From the IMG/VR virus record IMGVR_UViG_2713896773_000001: a stretch of DNA of 28,284 nt. One strand, 5' to 3'. This DNA comes from a virus (taxonomy: Duplodnaviria; Heunggongvirae; Uroviricota; Caudoviricetes). Of the stretch, positions 3,042 to 10,626 are shown piece by piece (within the stretch, counting starts at the first letter, position 1; each line of letters starts with the position of its first letter). Made by a program: the position numbers and the translations under genes. The notes beneath the pieces are model-generated. The model was given only the letters and a program-made list of their open reading frames with translations. It made no database searches and had not been told where the DNA came from.

Positions 3042-3397
3042 AAATTTACGACATCACGCCGATCGGCAAGCCCCGTATGACCCGCGCCGACAAATGGAAA
3101 ACACGGCCTGCGGTCATGCGTTACCGCGCATTCTGCGATGAAGCACGTCTGCGCAAAATCAATCTCCCTGAGTCCGGCGCGCATATCACCTTCGTTATGC
3201 CAATGCCTCCGAGCTGGAGCAAAAAGAAGCGTGAACAGCTCAACGGCAAGCCGCACCAGTCAAAACCAGACTGCGACAACATGCTTAAAGCACTGATGGA
3301 TGCCCTGTTTGATGATGATTCCAGTGTCTGGGATTGTCGCATTACAAAGCTATGGGGCGAGAAAGGCCAGATCATCATTCGGGAGAACGGACAATGA
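3038..3397 (+). CDS. rusA: RusA-family Holliday junction resolvase
   Basis: PDCDNMLKALMDALFDD matches the RusA catalytic D-x-DN...K...DAL motif; position downstream of ninB in the nin region. Confidence 0.8.
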   Translation: MKIYDITPIGKPRMTRADKWKTRPAVMRYRAFCDEARLRKINLPESGAHITFVMPMPPSWSKKKREQLNGKPHQSKPDCDNMLKALMDALFDDDSSVWDCRITKLWGEKGQIIIRENGQ

Positions 3398-4077
3398 CAC
3401 GCACCGATATTAACAATTACCAGAAAGCGTCTGTTGAGCGTACCAACCCGCAAAACGCCTGGGTGACGCTGGCAGCAGCACCACGCAGATCTTACCTGGG
3501 GAAATACCGCCGACTGACACCATCGCAAAGCCGTTGGGTTCGTTCGTTGCTGAACAACTGGGGCGGCATGTATGGAGGCAGCGGAATAGAACACCTTTCA
3601 GGTGGCGGTGGTATGTGGTCAATGATATTGACCGGCTGGACTGGCGAACAGCAGGAGCGGATCGCTACCGTACTGTCTGGTCTGCGTAAAATTGGCTATA
3701 CCGGAGATGCGTTGTTTGAGCAGGCTAAAGCCATCATCTGGCCGAAGAAATCACTTTCTGACCTGATCGGCAACGCCGGGGATCAAGAGGAAGCTGCATT
3801 CATGGAGGCTATCATCCTGAAGTCCTTCAAGCCGGGGAATCCCGTGTATGAGATAGGGAAGGACTATTACACCTGGAGGAAAACCATTAATGACATGGCA
3901 CGGTGGATGCAATATTACTACGCGCCGTTTCTGACCGAAAAGCAATGTATTGACCGCGTGCGCTGGTGTATTGAGTTGTTTAATTCTGCTGTCTTCTTCA
4001 CGTTAAAAGATGAATTTGGCTTCGAAAATGCAAAAACTTGCGAAAAAGACTTGAAAACGAGTTTTGAAACTGCATAA
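3394..4077 (+). CDS. putative late-gene antiterminator (Q-like), assigned mainly by position
   Basis: ATGA overlap with rusA; last gene before a promoter/terminator pair and the lysis cassette, as for Q in lambdoid phages. Sequence family not confirmed. Confidence 0.5.
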   Translation: MTRTDINNYQKASVERTNPQNAWVTLAAAPRRSYLGKYRRLTPSQSRWVRSLLNNWGGMYGGSGIEHLSGGGGMWSMILTGWTGEQQERIATVLSGLRKIGYTGDALFEQAKAIIWPKKSLSDLIGNAGDQEEAAFMEAIILKSFKPGNPVYEIGKDYYTWRKTINDMARWMQYYYAPFLTEKQCIDRVRWCIELFNSAVFFTLKDEFGFENAKTCEKDLKTSFETA

Positions 4078-4078: not shown

Positions 4079-4161
4079 TCAGATATGCTCGGACGTCAAA
4101 GGCGAAAGAGCTTACCCACCAGCGGAGATGCCTTGCGCGGAGCGGTGTGAACCACATTTAA

Positions 4162-4188
4162 GCCCTTGCAGAAATGCAGGGGCTTTTT
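4162..4188 (+). terminator. rho-independent terminator (tR'-like): 9-bp stem, GAAA loop, TTTTT
   Basis: GCCCTTGCA-GAAA-TGCAGGGGC followed by 5 T. Confidence 0.65.
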
Positions 4189-4195
4189 GCATTCA

Positions 4196-4270
4196 GGGTC
4201 AGAAGCACAGAGGTTGTGAGATCGGCTGTTAACCGATTGGTCGAAGGTTCGAATCCTTCCTGTCCCGCCA
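4196..4270 (+). tRNA. tRNA-like element, anticodon GUU (Asn-type); acceptor and D stems imperfect, possibly degenerate
   Basis: Hand fold: canonical T-arm GAAGG-TTCGAAT-CCTTC, perfect anticodon stem ATCGG/CCGAT with loop CTGTTAA, 3' CCA present, total 75 nt. One T-T mismatch in the acceptor stem, one G-A in the D stem, and A at position 8. Confidence 0.5.
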
Positions 4271-4320: not shown

Positions 4321-4344
4321 GCCCACCGCGCCGTGGGCTTTTTT
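4321..4344 (+). terminator. rho-independent terminator (GCCCAC-CGCGCC-GTGGGC followed by TTTTTT)
   Basis: Perfect 6-bp GC stem followed by 6 T; lies between the tRNA-like element and the holin gene. Confidence 0.65.
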
Positions 4345-4452: not shown

Positions 4453-4776
4453 ATGAAAATGCCATACAAACAAGATTTCATCGCTGCGCTACTTGCCGCC
4501 AAGGAGCAGGGTATTGGTGCAATGCTGGCTTTTATCATGGCGTATCTGCGTGGTCGCTATAACGGCGGCGCGGTAACAAAAACGCTAATTGATGCGCTGA
4601 TGTGCGCGATGATTGCCTGGTTCGTTCGTGACCTTCTGGACTTTATCGGCCTGAGCAGCAACCTCGCCTACATAGCCAGCGTCTTTATTGGATACATCGG
4701 CACCGATTCGATCGGCAATCTGATTAAAAAACTTGCAGCAAAAAAGGCGGGAGTTGACGATGCAAACCAGTCCTGA
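4453..4776 (+). CDS. S: class I holin, lambda S type, with MKM dual-start motif
   Basis: Near full-length similarity to lambda S (107 codons, for example [24 protein letters not shown] blocks); GGAGGTGAGG upstream; ATG-AAA-ATG dual start. Confidence 0.9.
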
Positions 4777-5209: not shown

Positions 5210-5658
5210 TTAGCGCACTGGTTAAGCGTTACTGGCTGCAGTTGCTGGTGCTGGCGTTAATCGGCGCACTGGCTTTCTTCGTGAACCACTACCGCGACAA
5301 CGCCATCACTTACAGAGACCAGCGCGATAAGGCCACTGAGAAACTCCTCCTGGCGACCGCCACCATTAAAGACATGCAGACCCGCCAGCGTGATGTCGCT
5401 GCACTGGATGCCAAATACACCGGAGAACTGGCTGATGCGAAAGAAACCATTGAGCGTCTGCATAGCGATGTCATTGCTGGCCGTAAGCGGCTGCAAGTCG
5501 CCGCCACCTGTGCAAAGTCAACGACCGGAGCCAGCAGNNNNNNNNNNNNNNNNNNNNNNNNNNNNNNNNNNNNNNNNNNNNNNNNNNNACTACCTGCAGG
5601 AATACATCAGGACGCAATGCCTGAAATAATTTTTTTGCAAATCACAAAGTCAATTTAA
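5206..5658 (+). CDS. Rz: i-spanin Rz; 3' part passes through an N-run
   Basis: ATGA overlap with the endolysin; N-terminal transmembrane segment then coiled-coil-like region; about 150 aa. The 51-nt N-run at 5538-5588 is inside the gene. Confidence 0.7.
5435..5629 (+). CDS. Rz1: o-spanin Rz1 lipoprotein embedded in the +1 frame of Rz; 3' part passes through an N-run
   Basis: [20 protein letters not shown] lipoprotein signal with lipobox VSGC, followed by a proline-rich mature region ([13 protein letters not shown]). Confidence 0.6.
5538..5588. other. run of 51 N (gap or masked sequence) inside Rz/Rz1
   Basis: Directly visible in the sequence. Confidence 1.
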
Positions 5659-5661
5659 TGA

Positions 5662-5684
5662 GCCTCGCGATGCGGGGCTTTTTT
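5662..5684 (+). terminator. rho-independent terminator after the lysis cassette (GCCTCGC-GAT-GCGGGGC followed by TTTTTT)
   Basis: Stem-loop plus T-run immediately after the Rz stop. Confidence 0.55.
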
Positions 5685-5827
5685 ATGTCCGCAGTAAACG
5701 CGCATCTCACGCGCATATTAACGAGAGCCTTTCAGTAAGCGAGCCTGAGAAATGCCGTTATAGGTGGCGACCTCTCTCGGGCGGCTTTTCTGTGAGACAG
5801 GCTCACTTTCTAAAAGGTAAAGACGCT

Positions 5828-6346
5828 ATGAATAATCCGTCAGTTATTCCGGCCTTCGACTTCCGCGAAATGGTCACGACCCTCGACAACAAGATAATCA
5901 CCACATCACTCAAGGTGGCGGATTACTTTGGCAAGCGACACAAAGACGTTTTGCGTGCCATACGTAACCTGAAATGCTCCGATGACTTCACCCAGCGCAA
6001 TTTTGCGCCCATTGATTTCATTGATAAAAATGGCGATGTTCAGCCTATGTATAACATCACCCGCGACGGATGCATGATGCTAGTGATGGGATTCACTGGC
6101 AAAACAGCTGCCGCAGTGAAGGAGTGTTACATCAATGCCTTCAACTGGATGGCCGAGCAGCTAAACCGGCGCATGGCGATGGGTGAAGAATTGCAGCATC
6201 GCTACGCCATCAAAGAAACGCGCTCAAAGCTGAAAGGCACGATCGGAAGCCGTTTGATGAACGAGCGGAAGAAAGAGAAGCGCGTCCTGGAGCTCGAACA
6301 TGAGCACATCATGCAGGTAACGCAGCCGGAATTACTTATTGGCTGA
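5828..6346 (+). CDS. rha: Rha-family phage regulatory protein
   Basis: TTSLKVADYFGKRHKDVLRAIRNL...NITRDGCMMLVMGFTG matches the conserved Rha N-terminal domain. ATG at 5828 chosen over the GTG at 5792. Confidence 0.7.
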   Translation: MNNPSVIPAFDFREMVTTLDNKIITTSLKVADYFGKRHKDVLRAIRNLKCSDDFTQRNFAPIDFIDKNGDVQPMYNITRDGCMMLVMGFTGKTAAAVKECYINAFNWMAEQLNRRMAMGEELQHRYAIKETRSKLKGTIGSRLMNERKKEKRVLELEHEHIMQVTQPELLIG

Positions 6347-6406
6347 TCGCGGCATTACAGAAGCCCTTCATTGAGGGGCTTCGATAATGGAGCACTGGAA
6401 TTATTC

Positions 6407-7027
6407 ATGAACAGACCACACCCACCAGCGCATTTTACGATGCCACCTGACCCGAAGCCGTACATCAGCATTATGCCCGCTAATGACGTTGGCGAGTGGC
6501 TGAATCAGCACATCCTGAGCGATGAGGGTGACCTCTACAACCATGACCACCAGCATTTGCTTGAAGCGGATCTGTGCTTTCTCTGGGCGTCTAACGCTTT
6601 CGAGAAGAAAGGGCGTTCCGTGCTGGGGCAGGCGGAAGAAGTGGCAATGCGGGCTGGAGGCTGGCAGAAAGCGCGGATGGAGCAGCAGATGTATGAATGG
6701 TTCGGCAGGGTGCCGCAGTTCATCATCACGCTGGCCGCTGATTACTGCTCGCAATGTTCCGATCTGGAATTCTGTGCGCTGATAGAGCACGAGCTTTATC
6801 ACATCTGCCAGGCGACAGATGAATTTGGCGCGCCGAAGTTCACGCAGGAAGGGCAGCCAAAGCTGAAGCTGCGCGGCCATGACGTGGAAGAGTTTGTGGG
6901 CGTGGTTCGCCGTTACGGTGCAAGCCGGGACGTGCAGGAAATGATTGATGCGGCGAATCAGCCAGCGGAGGTTGCTCATCTCGATATTGCCAGAGCGTGC
7001 GGGACGTGCATGCTGCGACTGGCTTAA
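6407..7027 (+). CDS. putative zinc metallopeptidase-like protein (HExxH motif)
   Basis: IEHELYHI contains an HExxH zinc-binding signature; ATG at 6407 chosen over the TTG at 6371. Family not confirmed. Confidence 0.5.
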   Translation: MNRPHPPAHFTMPPDPKPYISIMPANDVGEWLNQHILSDEGDLYNHDHQHLLEADLCFLWASNAFEKKGRSVLGQAEEVAMRAGGWQKARMEQQMYEWFGRVPQFIITLAADYCSQCSDLEFCALIEHELYHICQATDEFGAPKFTQEGQPKLKLRGHDVEEFVGVVRRYGASRDVQEMIDAANQPAEVAHLDIARACGTCMLRLA

Positions 7028-7058
7028 ATACTGGACTGTATAAGACGAATGGTGATTT

Positions 7059-7532
7059 ATGGCTGCATTAAAACCTGATGTGAAAGCCTTCATCATTCAG
7101 TCGCTTGCGTGCTATGACACGCCATCGCAGGTGGTCGAGGCTGTCCAAAAAGAATTTGGGATCAAGATCACCCGCCAGCAGGCTGAATCTCACGACCCCA
7201 CGAAGGCCAGCGGTAAGACGCTCGCCAAAAAGTGGATCGAGATGTTCCACGCGACGCGCGAACGGTTCCTGACCGAAACCAGCGACATTCCGATCGCGAA
7301 CAAATCCTATCGCCTCCGCGTGCTTGACCGCATGGCAACCAAAACCGAGGGGATGAAAAACTTCTCCCTGACGGCGCAGCTGATTGAACAGGCCGCGAAA
7401 GAGGTTGGCGACGCTTACACCAATAAGCTGAAGGTTGAGAGCACCGGCAAGGATGGCGGCCCGATCAAGACCGAGACGACCAATCTCACTGCAGATCAGG
7501 CCGCAGAGATTTACCGCAAGATGATGGGGTGA
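7059..7532 (+). CDS. putative terminase small subunit (DUF2280-like)
   Basis: Small basic protein immediately upstream of and overlapping the large terminase gene; assignment by position and from memory of DUF2280-type proteins. Confidence 0.5.
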
Positions 7533-7534
7533 TC

Positions 7535-9157
7535 ATGCCTCTCCCGTTTGAATTCGATTTCAGAAACCCTGATTACCAGATGGTTTTTGAATGGCGGATG
7601 GAGCGCTTACAGCGCATTCGCCAGAACCCTGAAATGCTGCCAGCGCTAAAGCAGTTTTACCGCACCAACCCGGCACAGTTCATCATCGACTGGGGTATGA
7701 CTACTGACCCGCGTAACATCGATTATGGCTTGCCGGTCACCATCCCTTTTCTGCTGTTCCCGAAACAGGAAGAGTGGATTCACTGGATCATGGAGCGGCG
7801 CGAACGACTGGAGAACGGCATCACCGAAAAGAGCCGCGAAATGGGGCTCAGCTGGACGGCGATCGGGCTGGCCTGTTCGCTCTGCCTCTTCAACAAAGAA
7901 ATGGTCATCGGCTTCGGCTCCCGTAAAGAGGAATACGTCGACAGTACCGGTGACCCGAAGGCGCTGTTCTGGAAGGCGCGCAAGTTCGTGGAAACGCTGC
8001 CCGTCGAGTTTCGCGGTTCGTGGGACGAGAAGAAACACGCCCCGTACATGCGCGTTGAGTTTCCCGATACTGGCGCGGTCATCAAAGGCGAGGCTGGCGA
8101 CAATATCGGTCGTGGGGACCGTACCACGCTCTACCTGGTGGATGAAGCTGCATTCCTCCAGCGTCCTCTGTTGATTGATGCGGCGCTGTCGCAAACCACC
8201 CGTTGCCGTATTGACCTGAGCTCGGTTAATGGCATGGCGAACCCGTTCGCGCAGAAGCGTCACGGCGGGAAGATACCGGTTTTCACATTCCACTGGCGAG
8301 ATGACCCGCGCAAGGATGAAGAGTGGTATCGCAGGGAGTGCGAGAAAATCGACAATCCGGTGGTGGTGGCGCAGGAACTTGACCTGAACTACAGCGCATC
8401 TGCGGAAGGCGTCCTGATCCCGTCCGACTGGGTACAGGCTGCCGTCGACGCGCATATCAAACTTGGTATTCAGCCAACGGGCAAGCGACTGGGCGCGATG
8501 GACGTCGCCGACGAAGGCCGGGACAAAAACGCCTTTTCGACCCGTCACGGCTTCCTCCTGGAGAACGTGCGGGAATGGTCCGGCGTGGGCAGCGACATTT
8601 ACCAGTCCGTTGAGAAGGTCTTCGGCTTTTGCGAACAGGACAACCTCGAAGAATTTCGCTTCGACGAGGACGGCCTGGGCGCTGGCGTTCGCGGCGATGC
8701 ACGCGCCATCAACGAACTGCGTAACGCTGCGCGCCGACCGTCAATACTCGCCACACCGTTTCGCGGTAGCGGCGCGGTGTTTGATCCGGACGACGAAGCG
8801 GTGCGCGGCGACAACGGACAGGCCGCCCGCCTGAATAAGGACTTCTTCGCTAACGCCAAGGCCCAGAGCTGGTGGCATTTACGCAAGCTTTTCCAGAACA
8901 CCTATCGCGCCGTGGTTGAGGGCATGGCCTACAACCCGGACGAAATCATCTCAATCAGCAGCGCCATGGCGAGCAAAGACAAACTCATCATCGAGCTGTC
9001 GCAGCCGACCTACTCCATTAATGGCGTGGGGAAAATCGTTGTTGATAAACAGCCTGATGGCACCAAGTCGCCGAACCTCGCCGACTCGGTGATGATCAGC
9101 TACGCGCCAATGAATTCAGCCCTGAACATCTGGGAGCTGCTAGGGAGACAGGCCTGA
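7535..9157 (+). CDS. terminase large subunit
   Basis: About 540 aa, with a hydrophobic-DE Walker B-like motif (LYLVDEAAF) and a C-terminal nuclease-like region; sits between the small terminase and portal genes. GTG at 7529 is an alternative start. Confidence 0.85.
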
Positions 9158-10626
9158 TGGCACGAAACAAGCAATCCTCTCAGCGAACGGCACAGCCCAC
9201 CGCTGACGGCTACGAGAACTTCGTCGCCCGCGTTGGGATGCAGACGCCTAACCAGCATTCAGCATCGACCTACCGGGCGAACTCCACCAGCCGCAACCGC
9301 ATGCTGGTGGAATGGTCATATCGCGGTTCGTGGGTTATCGGTGAAGCGGTCGACGCTATCCCGGACGATATGACCCGAAAGGGCATTCGCATCACTTCGG
9401 AGATTGACGCCAAAGACCGTGGCACCCTCGAAGCGCAACTGGATGAGTTGCAGATCTGGGATGCGCTGAACGACGTGCTGAAATGGTCGCGTCTCTACGG
9501 CGGCGCGGTCGGCTTCATCATGATCGAGGGGCAAGCACCAATGACCCCGCTGCGACTCGAAACCATTGGCGAGGGCAAGTTTAAGGGCATTCTCCCGCTC
9601 GACCGCTGGATGATTAACCCGGTGCTGACACGCCGCATTAAAGAGATGGGGCCGGACCTCGGCAAGCCTGAGTTTTACGACGTGGTGACCACCGCAACGG
9701 GCATTCCGGCCTGGCGCATCCATCACAGCCGCCTGATCCGCTTTGATGGCGTCACGCTGCCATTCCAGCAGAAGATGACCGAAAACGAATGGGGAATGTC
9801 GGTTGTAGAGCGTATCTGGGATCGGCTTACTGCGTTCGATAGCGCCACTGTCGGCGCGGCGCAGCTGGTCTATAAAGCGCATCTGCGTACCTATAGCGTG
9901 GAGAAGTTGCGCGAGCTTATCGCGCTTGGAGGCCCGGCGTTCGAGGCGCTGCTGAAGAACATCGACCTGATCCGCCAGTTCCAGAGCAATGAAGGCATGA
10001 CGCTCATGGACTCGCGGGATAAGTTCGAAACCCACCAGTACAGCTTCAGCGGTCTGGATGACATTCTTTCGCAGTTTGCTGAGCAGATCAGCGGTGCCGT
10101 TGGTATCCCGCTGGTACGCCTGTTCGGTCAATCCCCGAAAGGCTTCTCTACTGGTGATGCAGACCTCGCCAACTATTACGACCGGGTGAGCTCATTGCAG
10201 GAGCGCCGCTTACGGCTGCCGATGCGCCGGATACTGGACATTATGCACCGCTCGGAACTCGGAAAGCCGCTGCCGGACGATTTCACGTTTGAGTTTAACC
10301 CGCTATGGCAAATGTCAGACGTTGACCGATCAACGGTGGCCGTAAACACCACCAACGCGATCAGTACCGCGCTGGGCGACGGATTGATGACGCGTAAGGC
10401 GGCGATGACCGACCTGCGCGAAAACTCTGACGTCACCGGCATCGGGGCATCCATTACCGACGAGGATATCGAGAATGCCGAAGACGAAGCGCCGCCAGGC
10501 ATCGGCGAACTTGGCGACAAACCGCCAGAGTCGCCAGGCGGAGATCCGATATCGAACGAGCCTACGGCAGATAGCGCGGGCGGTCGGGGATATCGTAAAT
10601 GGGCGCTACGATGGTTCAAACGATAG
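9157..10626 (+). CDS. portal protein (DUF1073-type)
   Basis: 489 aa, ATGA-coupled to the large terminase; size and position typical of a portal; acidic low-complexity C-terminus. Confidence 0.8.
   Translation: MARNKQSSQRTAQPTADGYENFVARVGMQTPNQHSASTYRANSTSRNRMLVEWSYRGSWVIGEAVDAIPDDMTRKGIRITSEIDAKDRGTLEAQLDELQIWDALNDVLKWSRLYGGAVGFIMIEGQAPMTPLRLETIGEGKFKGILPLDRWMINPVLTRRIKEMGPDLGKPEFYDVVTTATGIPAWRIHHSRLIRFDGVTLPFQQKMTENEWGMSVVERIWDRLTAFDSATVGAAQLVYKAHLRTYSVEKLRELIALGGPAFEALLKNIDLIRQFQSNEGMTLMDSRDKFETHQYSFSGLDDILSQFAEQISGAVGIPLVRLFGQSPKGFSTGDADLANYYDRVSSLQERRLRLPMRRILDIMHRSELGKPLPDDFTFEFNPLWQMSDVDRSTVAVNTTNAISTALGDGLMTRKAAMTDLRENSDVTGIGASITDEDIENAEDEAPPGIGELGDKPPESPGGDPISNEPTADSAGGRGYRKWALRWFKR

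Follow-up and report, generated by a model that had tools for sequence, protein, structure and literature searches.

Genes of the Rha family are late-operon genes that are harmful to phage growth in hosts defective in IHF (PMC4936722; also stated in a note to the phi80 record), and the closest known systems to the rha gene treated here are phi80 rha and orf201 rha of P22 (Pfam PF09669). Known metalloproteases to compare the HExxH protein with are the minigluzincins projannalysin, proabylysin and selecase, which are archaeal, M48/M56-related proteins of about 105–110 amino acids (aa), the DNA-dependent Spartan/SprT and Wss1 proteases, and the ImmA/IrrE group (Peptidase_M78). In many phages another small metal-dependent enzyme gene, that of the HNH protein gp74 of HK97-like phages, is likewise kept directly 5' of the gene for the small terminase subunit (TerS; gene terS), and gp74 is a candidate terminase accessory. 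Here we analyse a region of IMG/VR virus record IMGVR_UViG_2713896773_000001 (Caudoviricetes), a stretch of 28,284 nucleotides (nt) that we call the window, in which a rha gene is followed by the gene of a PF18894 zinc metallopeptidase-like protein (hereafter the peptidase), a DUF2280 gene and the gene of the large terminase subunit (TerL; gene terL). The window is a lambdoid prophage, with 99.6% identity to Citrobacter phage Omnitron and to a prophage of E. coli TOK-001 over the 1.9 kilobases (kb) compared. Rha and the peptidase are each ordinary, annotated members of known families at a lambdoid mosaic junction, and they do not make up a new regulatory pair; the new leads are the linkage of the peptidase to the terminase and a repeat element at the start of terS.

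The peptidase gene is nearly always found just before DUF2280. DUF2280 lies directly 3' of it in 80 of 80 IMG/VR loci and in 76 of 77 loci taken one per species from Enterobacterales and Pseudomonas (65–100% identity) and, when the search was seeded from DUF2280 instead, the peptidase stood directly 5' in 75 of 76 loci. The spacer between the two genes, 31 nt long in the window, measures 30–32 nt in 225 of 241 loci. Furthermore, among 50,697 phage records the genus counts are the same for both genes (Acinetobacter 62, Pseudomonas 44, Vibrio 8, Burkholderia 7, and 2 each for Salmonella, Pectobacterium, Cronobacter and Rhizobium), with three exceptions: Klebsiella, where one partial record begins at DUF2280, and Salinibacter and Bordetella, which are weighed below. 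As such, the adjacency is near-constant in phages of Enterobacterales, Pseudomonas, Acinetobacter, Vibrio, Burkholderia and Rhizobium. The gene pair precedes nine TerL clusters (clustering at 30% identity), and distant homologues of the peptidase (34–46% identity) are located 0–4 kb 5' of terminase genes of the Terminase_3, Terminase_6N and GpA families. Several linear phage records end with the peptidase gene, which fits a numbering that their authors started from terS.

An earlier note on this sequence had instead grouped the HExxH gene with rha as a two-gene unit at a module junction. Both open reading frames (ORFs) are present, as ORF calls and Pfam matches show (Rha at 5828–6346, the HExxH protein at 6407–7027), folding confirms a terminator upstream (5660–5680) and a hairpin between the genes (6353–6389), and the junction is borne out by lambda-type lysis genes on one side and DUF2280 and TerL on the other. 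The unit itself did not hold up when its co-occurrence was counted, a check that the note had proposed and for which it had taken non-conservation of the pair as speaking against its idea. A Rha ORF lies directly 5' of the peptidase in 16 of 79 IMG/VR loci, in 1 of 78 one-per-species genome loci and in 0 of 73 DUF2280-seeded loci; of 5,426 complete E. coli genomes, the peptidase–DUF2280 block occurs in 34 and this rha in 108, while both are adjacent in 4. In a megablast search with 5660–7540, phi80 and several phages of Klebsiella and Enterobacter match 5660–6389 only, and many E. coli prophages match 6353–7540 only, at 98–99%. These two homologies overlap by 37 nt, precisely the extent of the hairpin. 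In E. coli EH09-18-41, the lysis genes are followed by the peptidase with no rha between them. The homology breakpoint, the low adjacency counts and the alternative genes found in the same slot together mean that rha is swappable and that the two genes are not conserved side by side. Their pairing is an accident of mosaicism in a single prophage lineage, and no link between Rha and the peptidase has been demonstrated. We consider it fairly probable that the region consists of two independent units meeting at the hairpin, the first spanning 5660–6389 and the second being the head of the packaging module. The features of the region are the following, in coordinates of the window:

5660–5686, + strand: terminator-like hairpin and T-run, with a stem of 9 base pairs (bp), 6 of them GC, and a TTTTTTAT tail; closes the lysis cassette
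5828–6346, + strand: rha, 172 aa from ATG; PF09669, TIGR02681, PHROG 518
6353–6389, + strand: two-tier hairpin at the joint of the rha cassette and the packaging module, placed by folding and homology limits
6407–7027, + strand: PF18894 zinc metallopeptidase-like gene, 206 aa, heading the conserved block that runs into terS
6788–6802, + strand: HELYH motif (H128, E129, H132), invariant in 88 sequences
6878–6883, + strand: H158-D159; H158 is invariant and D159 kept in at least 90% of the 88 sequences
6998–7009, + strand: C-terminal CGTC motif (C198, G199, C201), from alignment conservation
7029–7046, + strand: direct repeats R1 and R2 with a period of 10 nt, located in the 31-nt spacer 5' of terS
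7059–7532, + strand: DUF2280 gene, putative terS, 157 aa; Pfam PF10045, E 5e-50
7141–7148, + strand: R3, inverted copy of R1/R2, CTGTCCAA in terS codons 28–30
7529–9157, + strand: large terminase TerL; PHROG 2, E 3e-32; RefSeq label 'TerL protein'
9157–10626: DUF1073 portal gene, the gene-order context downstream of TerL

The DUF2280 protein behaves as a small terminase whose C-terminal tail is swapped along with TerL. At about 150 aa, its gene overlaps terL, the stop codon at 7530–7532 running over the TerL start at 7529, and the same order is kept in all related loci. Residues 1–125 are conserved and basic (isoelectric point (pI) 9.4). The last ~30 residues (126–157; 7434–7532), on the other hand, are alike within and different between nine unrelated TerL clusters (234 loci). 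This tracking of the TerL cluster by the tail points to a recombination joint inside the DUF2280 gene and to a tail that docks on TerL, and the conserved N-terminal part followed by an exchanged tail would make the conserved block one of the peptidase plus the TerS N-domain. Judged from sequence, this layout is as expected for a TerS with a tail docking on the large subunit. In phage AH14a, which carries the peptidase–DUF2280 gene pair, the homologous gene was named the most probable TerS, and headful packaging was shown experimentally (PMC4936722). Taken together, DUF2280 is in all likelihood the small terminase TerS.

At the start of terS lies a repeat element whose copies co-vary. R1 (TACTGGAC, 7029–7036) and R2 (TATAAGAC, 7039–7046) repeat with a period of 10 in 67 of 102 unique spacers, and in 46 of the 102 at least seven of eight positions are equal between the two, against about 4 expected from shuffles. 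Many relatives carry perfect twins, with ACCTGGAC, TATTGGAC, CCCCTGAC or TTTATAC each present twice, and the variable 5' part of R1 and R2 changes jointly in both copies. Moreover R3, inverted and located ~100 nt 3' of R1/R2, changes in step with them between lineages; where R3 has the Val codon GUA for GUC, both R1 and R2 have UAC for GAC, such that even a synonymous change is tracked. Motif matches within a sequence exceed both the cross-lineage and the same-sequence controls. Complementarity amounts to 77.5% of cells for R1:R3 and 70.5% for R2:R3, compared to 23–51% with slid partners, and the covariation score of the three copies was reached by 0 of 500 shuffles. The three-copy motif is seen at the same places in loci L025, L112, L113, L118, L131, L134, L164, L174 and L180. 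The element is kept with DUF2280 both where the peptidase is absent (L180) and where it lies 4 kb off (L164, with a different motif), and therefore belongs to terS.

So what could this element be? It may consist of helically phased DNA sites for TerS (pac-type), or it may act through long-range RNA pairing that tunes translation of terS. RNAalifold returned no consensus structure on 50 terS-start regions, leaving an RNA helix between R1/R2 and R3 without thermodynamic support. The 10-bp phasing and the doubling of the direct copy incline us towards the DNA sites. The arrangement of two direct copies and an inverted one is similar to that of lambda cosB, where gpNu1 has a pair of direct sites and a single inverted one, or to P1 pac with its clusters of hexamers. 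When synonymous-site conservation was scanned along the peptidase and DUF2280 genes for an embedded pac site, only a mild rise was seen, at peptidase codons 85–135 (0.55–0.66 vs 0.47, uncorrected for codon degeneracy).

The earlier note had left the HExxH protein unassigned. It does have an assignment: Pfam PF18894, 'Putative phage metallopeptidase', matches it over the full length (E 4e-43, 147.3 bits against a cut-off of 23.7, profile positions 2–134 of 134), and RefSeq names the identical protein 'putative metallopeptidase'. By sequence, the window peptidase is a typical PF18894 member, identical to database entries and carrying every residue that is invariant in the family. It belongs to a large family of uncharacterised phage zinc peptidases, with 3,468 clusters at 90% identity and about 900 at 50% (903 representatives), which is widely mislabelled 'transposase'. 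PHROG 513, which the protein matches with E 9e-97, carries this mislabel as well. In long homologues (260–327 aa; P0130, P0131, P0133, P0137, P0147, P0176 and P0244) an HTH-like (helix-turn-helix) N-terminal domain and an acidic linker precede the peptidase part, the N-domain matching HTH_Tnp_1, HTH_28 and MerR weakly, and this domain is probably what gave PHROG 513 and many phage records their 'transposase' label.

In an alignment of 88 sequences, 33–98% identical to the query, H128, E129, H132, H158, G171, C198 and G199 are invariant, and H48, H50, D159 and E161 nearly so; C201 is invariant in a second alignment of 16 sequences. By analogy to the HExxH...H zincins, H158 would be the third zinc ligand, and H48/H50 together with the C-terminal Cys residues may form a second metal site. 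The AlphaFold2 model is confident (predicted local distance difference test (pLDDT) 94, predicted template modelling score (pTM) 0.86) and supports a minimal zincin fold that appears closest to the minigluzincins and the Spartan SprT domain. As such, the profile and structure searches proposed in the earlier note did find a metalloprotease fold, and the protein combines this fold with the conserved HExxH motif, both being features of the family. Around the fold, ~55 N-terminal and ~70 C-terminal residues are particular to PF18894. The protein is acidic (pI 5.2), and neither a signal peptide nor a hydrophobic segment can be made out in its sequence.

The known proteases differ from the window protein in several respects. 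The minigluzincins are 10–16% identical and lack the N- and C-terminal extensions of the window protein, with their own invariant His and Cys. Compared to Spartan/SprT and Wss1, the window protein is acidic, has its third His 26 residues away, and has no detected SprT zinc-ribbon or zinc-binding subdomain. SprT-like Pfam matches are weak and below family thresholds (4 of 88 members, best E 0.012), and the window peptidase itself matches neither PF10263 (SprT-like) nor WLM, which places it outside these families by sequence. Searches of PDB sequences with the peptidase and with the family profile gave nothing useful, and a fold search of BFVD returned other PF18894 proteins and weak matches only. 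ImmA/IrrE proteins are likewise HExxH zinc proteases of mobile elements, but the window gene lies in a late operon rather than beside a repressor, and does not match PF06114. An ImmA/IrrE-like repressor protease was therefore rejected, there being no M78 match and no adjoining XRE-type repressor, and the repressor cleavage suggested in the earlier note finds no support for the same reasons. A prohead protease was rejected too, since a DUF2213 gene of its own is present in the head module, and so was a secreted or envelope protease, neither a signal peptide nor a hydrophobic segment being evident from the sequence. The anti-defence or host-modifying role that the note had also considered is conceivable, but nothing here points to it.

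How, then, might the two units work? The first, made up of the terminator, a shared leader, rha and the two-tier hairpin, would be a self-contained cassette inserted after the lysis genes. The second would start at the hairpin and comprise the PF18894 protein, the 31-nt spacer and DUF2280, as the head of the DNA-packaging module, to which the peptidase probably belongs. The peptidase is probably transcribed late, together with the lysis and terminase genes, because it is co-directional with both and only two elements intervene, a terminator (5660) and the two-tier hairpin (6353). It is predicted to be a soluble, acidic, single-domain, cytoplasmic zinc enzyme, active through its intact HExxH...H site, and could be a Spartan/SprT-like protease working on a DNA-bound protein, or a partner, at the packaging-initiation complex. 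We tentatively propose that the peptidase is produced late, alongside the packaging proteins, as an accessory of DUF2280-type packaging, most likely a Spartan/SprT-like protease acting at the packaging-initiation complex. A bolder version, in which PF18894 is the dedicated third component of a widespread, undescribed type of terminase, the zincin and the DUF2280 TerS acting together at packaging initiation and R1/R2/R3 being the recognition (pac) site of TerS, strikes us as unlikely. If the peptidase does take part in packaging, a protease would be added to the known terminase accessories, and two families of 'unknown function' that are common in prophages of Pseudomonas, Acinetobacter, Klebsiella and E. 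coli would gain a testable function.

Several observations weigh against such a packaging role. In 181 near-identical Salinibacter phage records a membrane protein, not the peptidase, is encoded 5' of DUF2280 (in Salinibacter phage 4_8, L250, 4432–5480, DUF2280 adjoins TerL and a predicted membrane protein takes the place of the peptidase), which means that DUF2280 does not universally need the peptidase. In two Bordetella phage records the peptidase comes without a DUF2280 match, and in the one examined, PHB04, none was detectable; furthermore, DUF2280 stands without the peptidase in locus L180, and 4 kb separate the two genes in L164. The protein is acidic, and the short form of the peptidase, to which the window protein belongs, has no recognisable DNA-binding domain. 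The DUF2280 profile gave chance-level matches only against PDB sequences, so TerS draws no support from solved structures. In the literature, no experiment or paper gives PF18894 a function or a characterised member; nothing was found on the PHROG or accession numbers, nor on 'phage metallopeptidase' combined with terminase, PF18894 being mentioned only descriptively and DUF2280 only in a table. Finally, the adjacency could stem from co-inheritance around a cis-acting site and not from a partnership of the proteins. This would suit a peptidase that is a free-standing late accessory, for instance an anti-defence or host-modifying protease, which lies beside terS by block inheritance, perhaps via such a site, and has no part in packaging. 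Zincin proteases are common weapons in host-virus conflict, DUF2280 does occur without the peptidase, as just described, the repeat element belongs to terS and not to the peptidase, and alleles of the two genes recombine independently (in L025 the peptidase is 99% and DUF2280 72% identical). However, the junction between peptidase and terS persists in more than six genera and with nine TerL types while the region immediately upstream is hypervariable, and if the gene had no tie to terS, one would expect losses and replacements of it to be as frequent as those of the genes upstream. PADLOC gave no match for the peptidase, nor for Rha or DUF2280, and most known anti-defence genes are early, whereas the peptidase is probably expressed late. 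All in all, we regard a free-standing accessory as the main rival and a serious candidate, if a somewhat doubtful one.

Two further explanations fare worse than a late packaging accessory. That Rha and the HExxH protein form a functional unit, in which a regulator or anti-repressor works with a peptidase whose target for cleavage is a repressor, a defence protein or a protein of the host, could draw on the two genes being adjacent, co-directional and bracketed by hairpins in the window and in at least 16 near-identical prophages, and on Rha-family genes occurring somewhere in the same slot in 7 of 78 species-level loci. Against this stand the rarity of the direct adjacency, the breakpoint between the genes, phi80 having this rha without the peptidase, and the peptidase having neither an ImmA/IrrE (M78) match nor a neighbouring repressor. 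The co-occurrence counts already largely refute this unit, and we give it next to no credence. It is also very improbable that the HExxH protein is not a peptidase at all, being either a nuclease or RNase that depends on a metal and has a zincin-like scaffold, as in YbeY, or a non-catalytic, structural TerS partner that fills the role of the HNH proteins beside HK97-like terminases. The HNH protein gp74 differs from the window peptidase in both fold and chemistry. The invariant Glu of HExxH is a peptidase signature, whereas YbeY has HxxxHxxxxxH without this Glu; the best matches are proteases, and the invariant catalytic site speaks against a purely structural role.

Nucleases recur beside the peptidase–terS block. 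In Acinetobacter phages, with PhabP_R1 (L249, 3592–4630) as the example, a gene for a Vsr-like endonuclease overlaps the start of the peptidase gene, and in Burkholderia phage vB_PL1 an HNH endonuclease gene adjoins it.

The window rha is a member of the Rha family, and the orthologue of the founding phi80 rha in the same genomic position. It matches Phage_pRha (PF09669) with E 6e-31 and 107.2 bits (cut-off 29.9) and TIGR02681 with 103.3 bits (cut-off 45.95), and it was the only protein named by the NCBIfam scan. Over 730 nt (5660–6389) phi80 and the window are 98.4% identical, and the proteins are 100% identical over the aligned 172 aa; a GTG at 5792 is an alternative start that gives the 184 aa annotated in phi80. 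In both phages rha is located after Rz and a terminator, but in phi80 unrelated genes and the cos end come next, where the window has the peptidase. The terminator at 5660–5680 (−14.1 kcal/mol, a G+C-rich stem of 9 bp and a T-run after Rz) corresponds to a site annotated as terminator in phi80. The leader that begins with it (5660–5832, ~170 nt) has 93–100% identity to its counterparts in HK106, HK620 and Salmonella phages, which carry a gene for a GIY-YIG nuclease or KilA-N next to it, and appears to be an entry sequence that alternative inserts have in common. The slot that rha takes up is filled in related prophages by KilA-N/ORF11CD3, KilA-N/P63C or HNH genes, or is empty. Hence rha is one among several swappable inserts in the post-lysis slot. 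More generally, the stretch 5' of the peptidase is hypervariable: when the longest ORF within 1 kb was taken from each of 224 loci, these ORFs formed 101 clusters, the commoner ones being Rz, lysozymes, Rha, KilA-N/ORF11CD3, KilA-N/P63C and HNH.

The hairpin at 6353–6389 marks, from the sequence comparisons, the joint where modules are exchanged. Its outer stem pairs CAUUA with UAAUG, and the inner stem has about 9–10 bp (6360–6369/6373–6382), with a folding energy of −21 to −25 kcal/mol. A 45-nt element containing it folds at −21.1 kcal/mol (z −5.65, 0 of 200 shuffles as stable), while for a 71-nt stretch with the hairpin z is −2.85 and 1 of 200 shuffles folds as well. Five natural variants fold alike, at −15 to −25 kcal/mol (z −3.6 to −6.0, 0 of 200 shuffles each), and their inner stems differ by compensatory changes: GAAGCCCUUC/GAGGGGCUUC in the window, CAGGCAUUC/GAGUGCCUG in phi80, AAGCCCAUC/GGUGGGCUU in L028 and AAGCCAUUC/GAGUGGCUU in L004. 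The hairpin is present after rha in phi80 (L003, about 4700–4740) and 5' of the peptidase in L002, L004, L017, L025 and L028, Rha-less prophages included. It has the stem but not the U-tract of an intrinsic terminator, its tail being CGAUAAUGG, and so falls outside that definition, whereas in other genera a canonical terminator with a true T-run stands at the equivalent place before the peptidase. A search of 5500–7300 against Rfam gave chance-level matches only.

Some further observations concern the genes around these units. TerL at 7529–9157 is recognised by PHROG 2 only, with no Pfam or NCBIfam match at the thresholds used. Genes for a lambda-type holin, lysozyme and Rz lie 5' of rha (Pfam and annotation). 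Within the Rz gene, 51 bases at 5538–5588 are masked as N, at the place where phi80 has the embedded gene of the Rz1 lipoprotein, so that the Rz translation contains X residues and Rz1 is unreadable. An ORF of 247 aa (3334–4077) without a Pfam match occupies the position of a Q-type antiterminator, and is followed by a tRNA-Asn(GUU) gene (4196–4270), just 5' of the holin gene and located between terminator-like hairpins at 4160–4185 and 4321–4338.

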